Counted from the stretch's first letter, positions 51,188 to 64,000 are shown. The stretch is 64,000 bases of DNA from Massilia sp. (GCF_031995545.1 NZ_DAMAGA010000008.1:27818-91817); one strand, 5' to 3'. Notes: a model not told the origin generated them from the sequence alone. A program made the numbers and translations.

Positions 51188-56089
<4,902 letters not shown>

Positions 56090-60967: not shown

Positions 60968-61317
60968 GGATACCACTCTTTCTTTGAAATGGACGACGCG
61001 GACATGGCAGCGCGGCAAGCGCCTCCACCCCCGTGCCATTGCAAACACGACGGCATACGTTCTGCCGCCGGCGACGAAGCCGGTTCGAAATACTTAACGA
61101 AGGATAACGAAAATGGTCAAAGATGAATGTTCGATAGCTTACATATTAGTAAGTTTCGTCTCATCAGTCGGAAAGTGACATGCTCCGGAGCGTTGCCAAA
61201 GATTGCGTTTCAATGGGCGCGAACAAGCGTGCTGGGGTGCCAGAAACCGGCATGCAAAAAGCTTGATTTGGATCAATTGCCCGGCACTAAGTGGCTGATT
61301 TTGTTCAGCCTTTTGGT

Positions 61318-61406
61318 CTATCCACAAGAAATGTGGATAACTGTGTGGACAAGCGGCTCTTGACAAGCCGCAAGCGCAGTAGGGATGCGGGTTTCAACAA
61401 AATGCC
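61318..61406 (+). repeat. DnaA-box-cluster module, copy A
   Basis: CTATCCACA (61318-61326), TGTGGATAA (61332-61340, reverse complement is a perfect TTATCCACA), TGTGGACAA (61344-61352), CTTGACA (61359-61365), TGCGGGTTTCAACAAAATGCC (61386-61406). Confidence 0.6.
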
Positions 61407-61544
61407 CGTTCGACGGGCAAAAAATCTTCCCTTATAAATCAATGGCTTGCACATGCACTTCAAAAGTGCAGCAGGAATATGTGCGGTAAATTCCTACAAA
61501 AGCGGGGCACGGGGGATAAGTCGTCAACTTGGCGCCAACTGTCG

Positions 61545-63629
61545 TCATTTCCACGCGTTCCTGGCACGCTCGCGCACCAGCATGCGTACGCTGTCCGGCA
61601 TCGGGGTGCGGTTCTCGCGCCGGTCGGCATCGAGCCAGGCACATTCCTCGAAATGCTTGAGCATGGCGGGCGTGATGAAGCGCGTGCGCGCCGCATACAT
61701 GTGACGGTCGCCCATCTGCGCCTGCTGCTTCACGAAGAAGCGGTTCGGCACCACCAGGTGCAGGTTGTCGCGTGCGCGGGTCATCGCCACGTACAGCAGA
61801 CGCCGCTCTTCCTCGATGTCGTCCTGGTTGCCGGTGGACATATCTGACGGGATGCAGCCGTCGACCACATTCAGCACATGCACCGACTTCCACTCCTGGC
61901 CCTTGGCCGAGTGGATGGTGGACAGGATCACGTAATCTTCGTCCAGCAGCGGCGCGCCGGCGCGGTCGCCCGTCGCTTCCGGCGGGTCGAGCGTGATCTC
62001 GGCCAGGAAGCTTTCGCGGCTGCCATGGCCGGCGGACAGCGCCAGCAATTGCGCCAGGTCGGCCGCGCGCACTTGTGCATCATCGTGCTTGCGCTCCAGG
62101 TGCGGCCGATACCAGTCGATCGCCAGCTCCAGGTCCATCGGCCAGCGCAGACCGGGCGTGCGCAGGCGCCGGTACAGCGCGCAGAACGCCGACCAGTCCT
62201 CGCCGCCGCGCAGCTTCGCTCCGGCCGCTTCCAGTGCGCTTGCCGCATCAACGCTCTCCCCTACCGCGTCGAGCAGGCGGGTGGCGCTGGCCGGGCCGAT
62301 CCCCGGCAGCAGCTGCAGCACCCGGAAGCCCGCGATGCGCCCGCTCGGATTCTGGGCGAAACGCAGCAGCGCCAGCACGTCCTTGATGTGCGAGGCCTCC
62401 AGGAATTTCAATCCGCCGAATTTCACGAACGGGATGTTGCGGCGCATGAGCTCCAGCTCCAGTGCCGCACTGTGGCTGGCGGCGCGAAACAGCACCGCTT
62501 GGCTGGTGAGCGCCATGCCGGCTTCGCGCTGCTCGAGGATGCGGTTGCAGACCCAGCGCGCCTGTTCGGCTTCGTCGGGAATCAACACCAGCTGCGGTTT
62601 AATGCTGGACGCCTTGTCGGTCCACAGCGTCTTGGCGTGGCGCTCCAGCGCCCCCGCGATCACGGCGTTGGACGCATCCAGGATCGGCTGGGTCGAGCGG
62701 TAGTTGCGCTCCAGCGTGACCAGGCGCGCCGGCTGCGAGAACTGCTTCGGGAAGTCGAGGATGTTGCGCACCGTGGCGCCGCGAAAACCGTAGATCGACT
62801 GGGCATCGTCGCCGACCACCATCACGCCCTGGCCGTCGGGCTTCATGCCGGTCAGGATCGATGCCTGCAGGCGATTAGTGTCCTGGTATTCGTCCACCAG
62901 CACGTGGTCGAACAGCGCGCCCAGCTCGCGCCCGAGCACCGGGTCGGCCGCCATCTCGGCCCAGAACAGCAGCAGGTCGTCGTAGTCGAGCACGTTCTGC
63001 TCCTGCTTGGCGTCGACGTAGGCGCCGAACAGGGTCTTCAGCTGCGCCTCCCATTCGCTGCACCAGGGGAAGGTCGATTGCAGCACGGCGTCGAGCGGGT
63101 CGCGGCTGTTGACCACGCGCGAGTAGATCGCCAGGCAGGTGCCTTTCAGCGGAAAGCGCTTCTCGGTACCGGTCAGCCCGATCTCGTGTCGCACCAGGCC
63201 CATCAGGTCTTCGGAGTCGCCACGGTCGTGGATGGTGAACGCCTCGTCCAGGCCGATACGGCCGGCGAATTCGCGCAGCAGGCGCGCTCCGATGCTGTGG
63301 AAGGTGCCGGCCCAGGGCAGCGACACCGGTGCCGTCGAGCCTCCGCGCCCCAGCAGGCGCTGCAGCACGGCGCTGGCGCGGTGCCCCATCTCATTGGCGG
63401 CGCGGCGCGAAAAGGTCAACAGCAGGATGCGCTGCGGATCGGCGCCGGACTGGATCAGGCGTGCCACCCGGTGCGCCAGCGTGTTGGTCTTGCCGGAACC
63501 GGCACCGGCCACCACCAGCAGCGGACGCGGCGCGGCGACGCCGATGTCGTGCTCGACCGCCGCACGCTGCTCGGCATTAAGAGAAGCGAACGGGTCTTCA
63601 GTGGCGGGCGGGGTGGCGACAGCGGACAT
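61545..63629 (-). CDS. UvrD/PcrA/Rep-family ATP-dependent DNA helicase
   Basis: VVAGAGSGKTNTLAHR (Walker A), LVDEYQDTN, VGDDAQSIYGFRGA, ERNYRST, TIHSAKGQEW, YVAMTRAR. 694 aa. Confidence 0.92.
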   Translation of the reverse strand: MSAVATPPATEDPFASLNAEQRAAVEHDIGVAAPRPLLVVAGAGSGKTNTLAHRVARLIQSGADPQRILLLTFSRRAANEMGHRASAVLQRLLGRGGSTAPVSLPWAGTFHSIGARLLREFAGRIGLDEAFTIHDRGDSEDLMGLVRHEIGLTGTEKRFPLKGTCLAIYSRVVNSRDPLDAVLQSTFPWCSEWEAQLKTLFGAYVDAKQEQNVLDYDDLLLFWAEMAADPVLGRELGALFDHVLVDEYQDTNRLQASILTGMKPDGQGVMVVGDDAQSIYGFRGATVRNILDFPKQFSQPARLVTLERNYRSTQPILDASNAVIAGALERHAKTLWTDKASSIKPQLVLIPDEAEQARWVCNRILEQREAGMALTSQAVLFRAASHSAALELELMRRNIPFVKFGGLKFLEASHIKDVLALLRFAQNPSGRIAGFRVLQLLPGIGPASATRLLDAVGESVDAASALEAAGAKLRGGEDWSAFCALYRRLRTPGLRWPMDLELAIDWYRPHLERKHDDAQVRAADLAQLLALSAGHGSRESFLAEITLDPPEATGDRAGAPLLDEDYVILSTIHSAKGQEWKSVHVLNVVDGCIPSDMSTGNQDDIEEERRLLYVAMTRARDNLHLVVPNRFFVKQQAQMGDRHMYAARTRFITPAMLKHFEECAWLDADRRENRTPMPDSVRMLVRERARNAWK

Positions 63630-63665
63630 GATGCAAGAAAGCTTGAAACTGAGCTGGAAATGCCA

Positions 63666-63685
63666 TACTGTACATTTATCCAGTA
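63666..63685. promoter_or_regulatory. LexA (SOS) box upstream of the helicase gene
   Basis: TACTGTACATTTATCCAGTA matches the TACTGT-N8-ACAGTA type consensus at 17 of 20 positions (CTGT-N8-CCAG core). Lies 37-56 nt upstream of the ATG at 63629. Confidence 0.6.
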
Positions 63686-63804
63686 CGGACGAGCAAGCAA
63701 AAAGTGGAGAGACTGACGCCGGATGTCATGGACGCGTGTGCGGTGACATCAGCCATGACTTGAACACTCGAGCCTAACTCCCGGATAAATAAAAAGTTTT
63801 CCGG

Positions 63805-63893
63805 ATATCCACAAAGTCTGTGAATAAGTATGTGGAAAAGCGGGGGCTTGACACGCTGGATGCGGCCATCCGTGCGGGTTTCAACAATATGCC
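63805..63893 (+). repeat. DnaA-box-cluster module, copy B
   Basis: ATATCCACA (63805-63813), TGTGAATAA (63819-63827), TGTGGAAAA (63831-63839), CTTGACA (63847-63853), TGCGGGTTTCAACAATATGCC (63873-63893). Same order, spacing and orientation as copy A. Confidence 0.6.
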
Positions 63894-64000
63894 TAATGGG
63901 AAGGCAATCTCGGCAGCCTCGAAAATCAAGGGTTTACGTTGACTGCGCGATGTTGGGCCTAGTATGCACCGCAAATAACTTTGGAGCAATCTTTGTGCAT

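Follow-up and report, generated by a model that had tools for sequence, protein, structure and literature searches.

The 64-kb window of Massilia sp. DNA that was analysed here (GCF_031995545.1, NZ_DAMAGA010000008.1:27818-91817; "the window" means this whole stretch of 64,000 nucleotides), a high-GC (~65%) chromosome segment of the Massilia type, raises the question of why the same short non-coding sequence stands twice, in the same orientation, on either side of a gene for a UvrD-family helicase, and what such a sequence does for the cell. By comparing the two copies with those of related genomes and with the Escherichia coli loci that act on the initiator protein DnaA, we found that the window carries two old paralogues of one ~200-bp non-coding element, and that both repeats are non-random and under strong selection. 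The reading that we favour, with moderate confidence, is that each repeat is a DnaA/IHF (integration host factor) assembly element of the DARS (DnaA-reactivating sequence) family. In E. coli, DARS and the datA locus are central to the timing of replication initiation.

The original prediction had copy A begin at 61318 and copy B at 63805, a distance of 2,487 bp, with both on one strand and oriented alike, and this placement was borne out. The 21-mer TGCGGGTTTCAACAANATGCC occurs exactly twice in the 64 kb, at 61386-61406 and 63873-63893 (0 expected from 100 shuffles), while the full three-box pattern was matched twice in the window compared to no matches in shuffled sequence. All six of the DnaA-box-like 9-mers that had been described are present, one of them a perfect TTATCCACA and five matching at 8/9 positions, and the weaker similarity that had been noted about 80 nt further 3' proved to be a perfect IHF consensus, WATCAANNNNTTR, at 61437-61449 and 63924-63936, in each copy 84 bp past box III. 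Other details required correction. The modules had been taken to be ~90 bp long; their real extent is ~200 bp, with a fourth DnaA-like box at 61511-61519 (GGGGGATAA) and another from 63994 (TGTGCAT), which is cut by the end of the window. The proposed GTG start at 63994 lies inside this fourth box and is no gene start; the next gene in the relatives, from whose sequences the DNA 3' of 64000 was deduced, is a small convergent open reading frame (ORF) on the opposite strand. A TTGACT...TAGTAT promoter had also been proposed beside copy B, and a promoter scan of 61050-64000 gave no sigma-70-like promoter. A profile built from the relatives (nhmmer) aligns 127 nt of each copy, and the position-specific features reach to about +200. 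With the offsets counted from the first base of box I, the features are:

61318-61519, plus strand: left element (copy A, "L"), extending over boxes I-IV; nhmmer 61318-61444, E=1.4e-36, and fixed-offset features
61318-61326, plus strand: left DnaA box I, CTATCCACA, 8/9; opposed to boxes II and III, with the position and orientation of box I in E. coli DARS
61332-61340, minus strand: left DnaA box II, perfect TTATCCACA; 5 bp from box I
61344-61352, minus strand: left DnaA box III, TTGTCCACA, 8/9; 3 bp from box II
61360-61365, plus strand: left TTGACA, conserved, without a matching -10
61386-61419, plus strand: left 21-mer, TGCGGGTTTCAACAAAATGCC, overlapping TGCC-N9-GGCA; presumed site of an accessory protein
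61437-61449, plus strand: left IHF-binding consensus, AATCAATGGCTTG; 84 bp past box III
61511-61519, minus strand: left box IV, reading GGGGGATAA on the plus strand, 7/9; 61 bp past the IHF site
61545-63629, minus strand: UvrD-family helicase gene, 694 amino acids (Pfam UvrD-helicase and UvrD_C); between the elements and part of neither
63805-64000, plus strand: right element (copy B, "R"), the window ending within box IV; nhmmer 63804-63930, E=3.1e-22
63805-63813, plus strand: right DnaA box I, ATATCCACA, 8/9
63819-63827, minus strand: right DnaA box II, TTATTCACA, 8/9; 5 bp from box I
63831-63839, minus strand: right DnaA box III, TTTTCCACA, 8/9; 3 bp from box II
63848-63853, plus strand: right TTGACA
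63873-63906, plus strand: right 21-mer, TGCGGGTTTCAACAATATGCC, with TGCC-N9-GGCA
63924-63936, plus strand: right IHF consensus, AATCAAGGGTTTA; 84 bp past box III
63994-64000, minus strand: first 7 bases of right box IV, TGTGCAT[AA]; 57 bp past the IHF site
Offsets: box I (+) 0-8; box II (-) 14-22; box III (-) 26-34; TTGACA 42/43; 21-mer 68-88; IHF consensus 119; box IV (-) 187-193
Spacers: 5 bp between boxes I and II; 3 bp between boxes II and III; ~56-61 bp between the IHF site and box IV; fixed in length and free in sequence

It had been stated that no element with this architecture was described. The same core is in fact already described in E. coli DARS1 and DARS2, and of the options that were put forward for the repeats, that of a datA- or DARS-like locus is the one supported, and more specifically than had been realised, namely by the geometry of the DARS core. 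In E. coli, DARS1 occupies the intergenic region of bioD and uvrB, and DARS2 that of rppH/ygdT and mutH. Set side by side, with the E. coli sequences taken from MG1655, the three boxes of each core and the gaps between them read:

E. coli DARS1 (L068 1108-1142): TTATCCACT - ATTCC - TGTGGATAA - CCA - TGTGTATTA
E. coli DARS2 (L069 2136-2170): TTATTCACC - TTTTC - TGTGGATAG - AGT - TGTGAAGAA
Massilia copy A: CTATCCACA - AGAAA - TGTGGATAA - CTG - TGTGGACAA
Massilia copy B: ATATCCACA - AAGTC - TGTGAATAA - GTA - TGTGGAAAA

The orientations I(+)/II(-)/III(-) and the 5-bp and 3-bp gaps are identical in all four. In E. coli, the release of ADP was tied to the head-to-head pair of DnaA molecules on boxes I and II, 5 bp apart, while box III aids oligomerisation (PMC6868365). 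DARS2 depends, in addition, on sites for IHF and Fis next to its core (PMC4245941), while DARS1, according to the literature, needs no protein activator. Apart from the three-box core, the Massilia elements share with DARS2 an IHF site of the same orientation by the core, further DnaA boxes past that site, a non-coding character and a position that is not at oriC. The E. coli IHF-binding sites IBS1-2 lie at +93 and +109 from box I, and thus the Massilia site, at +119, stands one helical turn further out than IBS2. With DARS1 they share the core geometry and a box II of perfect consensus. A consensus box II, which in DARS is of high affinity and nucleates assembly, is found in copy A (61332-61340), while the right copies mostly match at 8/9 positions; an IHF site at a fixed distance from the core, as in DARS2, is found in 95/113 copies. 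There are also differences. The fourth box is on the minus strand at +187 to 193, whereas box V of E. coli DARS2 is on the plus strand at +211; TTGACA, the 21-mer and TGCC-N9-GGCA take the place of a conserved Fis consensus; and the host is a betaproteobacterium with two copies 1.1-3.4 kb apart, not on different replichores. E. coli DARS1, unlike the Massilia elements, has no IHF consensus (at one mismatch or fewer) next to its core, and no uvrB is found near the Massilia elements.

The distribution of the element was determined by scanning one genome per species for the exact 21-mer. It was found once per genome in 67 species, every one of them belonging to the Oxalobacteraceae (Massilia, Telluria, Pseudoduganella, Rugamonas and Zemynaea), and a second, diverged copy in the same orientation lay 1.1-3.4 kb off at nearly all of the loci that had enough flank. 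In the 115 copies from the 67 species and the window, the 9-5-9-3-9 spacing of the boxes never changed (115/115), even though the 5-bp spacer occurs in 25 different sequences and the 3-bp spacer in 12. Box II was the perfect consensus in 64 of the 71 high-scoring copies and mostly TTATTCACA in the right copies; TTGACA stood at offset 42 or 43 in 111/113 copies and the exact IHF consensus WATCAANNNNTTR at offset 118/119 in 95/113, with the distance from the core to the IHF site staying at 84 bp even when a 1-nt indel displaced TTGACA. The last four bases of the 21-mer (TGCC) begin an invariant TGCC-N9-GGCA, which kept its N9 spacing in 112/112 copies, with a stem of only 4 bp in 77/114. Box IV reads (G/A/C)GGGGATAA at offset 192-193 in the left copies and TGTG(C/T)ATAA at offset 187-189 in the right ones, and the arm between the IHF site and box IV measures 61 bp in the left copies against 56-57 bp in the right. 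Further loci, located by way of the small ORF next to the element, still have the boxes, IHF site and box IV, including those whose 21-mer has diverged.

Pairwise identity among 83 non-redundant copies was 0.92-0.97 in the DnaA boxes, 0.94 at the specified positions of the IHF site and 0.86 in the 21-mer, compared to 0.32-0.57 in the spacers. The suggestion that selection acts on binding sites and that the duplication is not recent therefore holds over 67 species. Spacers that are fixed in length and free in sequence are the signature of a DNA-protein architecture and not of a coding or RNA constraint. The identity of left and right copies within a genome (0.717) equals that between genomes (0.723), and both are lower than the identity among left copies (0.817) or among right copies (0.753); the copies thus form two orthologous sets, which means that the duplication is old and that the two have been kept independently. 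No gene conversion between the left and right copies was shown by this comparison within and between genomes. The segment of TTGACA, the 21-mer and TGCC-N9-GGCA is nearly as conserved as the DnaA boxes and matches no promoter, Fis, IHF or RNA model; it is probably the site of a further protein.

Conserved non-coding sequence of 200 bp could also belong to RNA, and both copies have on the minus strand a terminator-like hairpin with a T-run, TGCC...GGCA followed by TTTTGTTG. The copies could accordingly be a pair of paralogous genes for small RNAs, encoded on either strand, whose promoters include the DnaA boxes. We consider this extremely improbable. Rfam gave no match at the gathering threshold or at E<=1, RNAalifold on 41-44 non-redundant copies and both strands yielded only -1 to -6 kcal/mol over 180 nt without covariation, and a search for tRNA genes found none. 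The stem of the minus-strand hairpin is the 4-bp one already described, and terminator-like matches were not more numerous than in shuffled controls. Moreover, the would-be body of the RNA is the least conserved part of the element (0.32 identity), and yet its length is fixed.

The genes around the elements vary much more than the elements themselves. The ancestral order appears to be an HD-domain gene, the left copy, a REC-PAS response regulator (+), the helicase (-), the right copy, a small ORF (-), a Zn-ribbon ORF and a chrA pair; a major facilitator superfamily transporter is also found among the neighbours, with the UvrD-family helicase, the REC-PAS regulator, chrA and small ORFs. What lies between the copies depends on the lineage: the helicase, the REC-PAS regulator or both. 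The regulator has been lost from the main clade of Massilia, to which the window belongs. A check of synteny in relatives without the helicase, which had been recommended, showed the elements to be present there as well: Rugamonas and Pseudoduganella have no helicase between the copies and retain the right one. Convergent 3' ends enclose the left copy in Telluria, where they belong to a Sir2 gene and the helicase, and the right copy in Rugamonas, where they belong to the regulator and the small ORF. Because both copies remain fully conserved while their neighbours change, they are not simply promoters for these genes, nor did they arise through the helicase as a cassette. The elements are independent of the neighbouring genes, and the helicase gene is incidental, lineage-specific cargo. 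The protein in the window falls below every NCBIfam equivalog cut-off, and its 100%-identical NCBI counterpart is P0001.

This variation bears on the proposal that the repeats are DnaA-controlled promoters and nothing else, the genes in question being the REC-PAS regulator, which lies downstream of the left copy, and the helicase, which diverges from the right one. Some distances agree with it: box IV of the left copy lies ~50 nt upstream of the REC-PAS start where that gene is present (L045), in the window the helicase start is preceded, 176 nt upstream, by box I of the right copy, TTGACA is conserved, and E. coli DARS1 likewise overlaps the promoter region of uvrB. However, no -10 accompanies TTGACA, the right copies have no conserved -10, and the scan of 61050-64000 called no sigma-70 promoter; motifs of alternative sigma factors were checked by eye only, with nothing convincing. 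The left copy is intact in more than 40 Massilia species that lack the REC-PAS gene, and the right copy is kept in the helicase-less Rugamonas and Pseudoduganella. The Telluria left copy and the Rugamonas right copy, placed between convergent 3' ends, make this proposal, which was one of those made originally, unfit as the whole explanation. In addition, spacers of fixed length and free sequence over 200 bp, plus an IHF site, are more than an operator requires. Taken as a complete account of the repeats, promoter function is quite unlikely.

An origin of replication was another candidate, raised by a minimum of the cumulative GC skew near 60 kb, and it was rejected on the negative skew of both flanks. 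More broadly, the repeats could be a bipartite or secondary origin, as DnaA boxes with an IHF site look origin-like, or the scars of a mobile cassette, as direct repeats that flank a gene might be, whether through duplication of the target by insertion of the helicase or as repetitive extragenic palindromes (REP) or miniature inverted-repeat transposable elements (MITE). Both variants taken together seem very improbable to us. The GC skew does not switch at the elements: over 67 loci the left flanks average -0.025 and the right -0.021, and it is negative through the window and in the 22-kb loci. In ~80% of the loci the skew is negative on the box I strand, and an origin-type pattern was seen in only 1/33 metagenomic relatives. 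No strongly AT-rich unwinding element lies beside the boxes, and the check for origin or terminus features found no dif site. As for insertion of a helicase cassette with target duplication, which had been suggested, the ~72% identity of the repeats and their division into orthologous left and right sets date the duplication to before the genera, and the DNA between the repeats differs by lineage. A REP or MITE would occur in tens to hundreds of copies per genome, whereas each genome of the 67 species holds one exact 21-mer and each locus no more than 2 copies of the element, with the limit that diverged third copies could escape an exact scan.

In four complete chromosomes (CP196525.1, NZ_CAXUPB020000001.1, CP132480.1 and CP131935.1), the locus is found 42-47% of the way along the record. 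If these four records start at oriC, as we assumed, the locus is terminus-proximal and the pair is replicated late, as would be more fitting for a reactivator than for an inactivator of the datA kind. On the same assumption the elements resemble DARS in being non-coding sites away from oriC, since they are intergenic and show no skew switch, and the position is again not that of an origin.

A bare triad of the three boxes was also searched for in metagenomes and was found at no fewer than 120 loci (L076-L195; at least 120), with a GC content of 0.33-0.71. Most of the matches listed share only the boxes with the Massilia module; the nhmmer module score is ~20, compared to >60 for the copies of the Massilia type; the commonest family among the matches listed was Woeseiaceae. 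In 114 elements among the matches listed, the plus-strand IHF consensus clusters at +119 to 122, with 27 exact sites and 60 within one mismatch, while only 8 exact plus-strand sites were found anywhere else. Minus-strand DnaA boxes in the same 114 elements cluster at +201 to 206, in 45 of them, and at +191, in 8. These elements therefore have the triad, the IHF site at +119 to 122 and the downstream minus-strand box in common with Massilia. They differ in that their fourth box is usually at +201 to 206, with a gap of ~71 bp between the IHF site and the box instead of 56-61 bp, and in having neither the 21-mer of the Massilia type nor TTGACA. One of them stands on a low-GC (0.38) gammaproteobacterial contig (L176 7937-8255, as oriented), where the triad, oriented like DARS1, is located 318 bp upstream of uvrB and has a perfect IHF consensus at +122; DARS1 of E. 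coli is 419 bp upstream of uvrB. This uvrB was the single match when the metagenome loci were searched with tblastn for the genes that neighbour DARS and datA in E. coli. The placement of L176 upstream of uvrB ties the triad class to DARS by synteny. The pattern of triad, IHF site and fourth box suggests a general class of element, broader than the reported gamma-proteobacterial homologues of DARS2.

A comparison with datA complicates the picture. Read on the other strand, E. coli datA has box 4(+), 3 bp, box 3(-), 84 bp, the IHF-binding site (IBS)(+), 56 bp and box 2(-), while the right copies have I(+), 5 bp, II(-), 3 bp, III(-), 84 bp, IBS(+), 56-57 bp and IV(-). The arm lengths and box orientations of E. 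coli datA (L072 533-727) and of window 63805-64000 are the same, and in datA too an opposed box stands beside the box of the 84-bp arm. The shared arms hint at a common structural constraint or at a common ancestry of datA and the DARS-type elements. The repeats could thus be datA-like and repress, rather than promote, initiation. The layout around the IHF site in the right copies, with its 84-bp and 56-57-bp arms, agrees with this, and the boxes on both sides of the IHF site share their direction, as datA requires (PMC5742627), with a single IHF site between them in datA too. On the other hand, datA lacks the I/II/III core with its 5-bp opposed pair, and in all of the Massilia copies the 9-mer 3 bp past box IV has 4-9 mismatches, so that a counterpart of the essential low-affinity box 7, whose position in E. 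coli (3 bp past box 2) was deduced from the 183-bp minimal datA (PMC5742627), is absent. In addition, datA lies near oriC and acts on ATP-DnaA, whereas the Massilia locus is at 42-47% of the chromosome record, again with an oriC start assumed; the 61-bp arm of the left copies is half a helical turn off datA; and L176, the syntenic homologue of DARS1, has a triad and an IHF site at +122, as in Massilia. We consider the datA-like reading as a whole to be unlikely, while a datA-like function is a serious alternative for the sign of the effect.

If the elements belong to the DARS family, as we favour, a mechanism can be modelled on E. coli DARS1 and DARS2. DnaA would bind the consensus box II first, and would then be joined by a second DnaA, recruited head-to-head onto the opposed box I 5 bp off, and by a third, recruited head-to-tail onto box III 3 bp off. 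IHF would bind 84 bp further on and bend the DNA back, and the bend would bring the DnaA on box IV (56-61 bp past the IHF site), as well as a factor bound to TTGACA and the 21-mer, against the triad. The complex may then make ADP-DnaA release its nucleotide, by which ATP-DnaA would be regenerated for the initiation round that follows. That DnaA and IHF bind the elements, and that the effect is reactivation and not inactivation, is what we infer by analogy with E. coli. Several observations weigh against a DARS function. The conserved TTGACA, 21-mer and TGCC-N9-GGCA are left unexplained by it. Unlike in DARS2, in which the Fis-binding sites FBS2-3 are required, no position carries the Fis consensus GNNYANNNNNTRNNC in 5 or more of 111 copies, and no synteny with uvrB (DARS1) or mutH/rppH (DARS2) was found at the loci. 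Finally, the arms of 84 and 56-57 bp and the orientations of box III, box IV and the IHF site are those of datA, and as datA does the reverse, promoting ATP hydrolysis, it is uncertain which sign the effect would have.

Some further observations concern the surroundings of the elements. An ORF of 72-84 amino acids without a Pfam or NCBIfam match is always convergent to the right copy (L038 5520-5738, L005 5401-5628 and L047 6487-6741, all on the minus strand) and lies just past position 64000 of the window. On its 3' side are a small zinc-ribbon ORF (CxxC-CxxC) and then a split chromate-transporter pair. It may be a coincidence that DARS-type elements adjoin genes of DNA repair both in E. coli (uvrB and mutH) and in Massilia (the UvrD-family helicase). 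Elsewhere in the window, six tandem 276-bp repeats with 75-87% identity to the reference copy are found at 51509-53299; a multi-HAMP protein of 1637 amino acids was called in a related genome (L070), and the repeats may encode HAMP-type modules of a large sensor protein.

A more far-reaching scenario, which is speculative and in our estimation improbable, is that the order of triad, 84-87 bp, IHF site and fourth box is an ancient and widespread proteobacterial module of the DnaA cycle, from which both DARS and datA of E. coli would derive. The paralogues of the Oxalobacteraceae would then have diverged, with one reactivating and the other inactivating DnaA, and would form a compact two-way switch that is replicated together late in the cycle, with the TTGACA/21-mer factor in place of Fis. 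The two copies do differ in the relevant parts. In the right one box IV is strong and the arms, of 84 and 56 bp, are datA-like; in the left one box II is perfect and box IV weak, and the arm exceeds that of the right copy by 5 bp, so that box IV comes to lie on the other face of the helix.

To our knowledge, DARS and datA have been characterised only in E. coli. In the literature that was searched, their homologues were traced only to related gamma-proteobacteria, and no report of DARS in Betaproteobacteria was found, apart from one review that mentions "beta- or gamma-proteobacterial" conservation of DARS2 in passing. The pair in Massilia and its relatives therefore most likely represents the first DARS-like regulators seen in this bacterial group. 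Added to this are the datA-like arms, the TTGACA/21-mer motif and the evidence for a widespread class of triad, IHF site and fourth box, while two diverged copies side by side constitute a natural experiment. If the reading is true, the 9-5-9-3-9 triad with a phased IHF site would be a conserved signature that could be used to find such sites in any genome, and the strictly conserved TTGACA/21-mer would point to an undiscovered accessory factor analogous to Fis. It would also mean that a DnaA nucleotide cycle that is run by non-coding DNA reaches the Betaproteobacteria.

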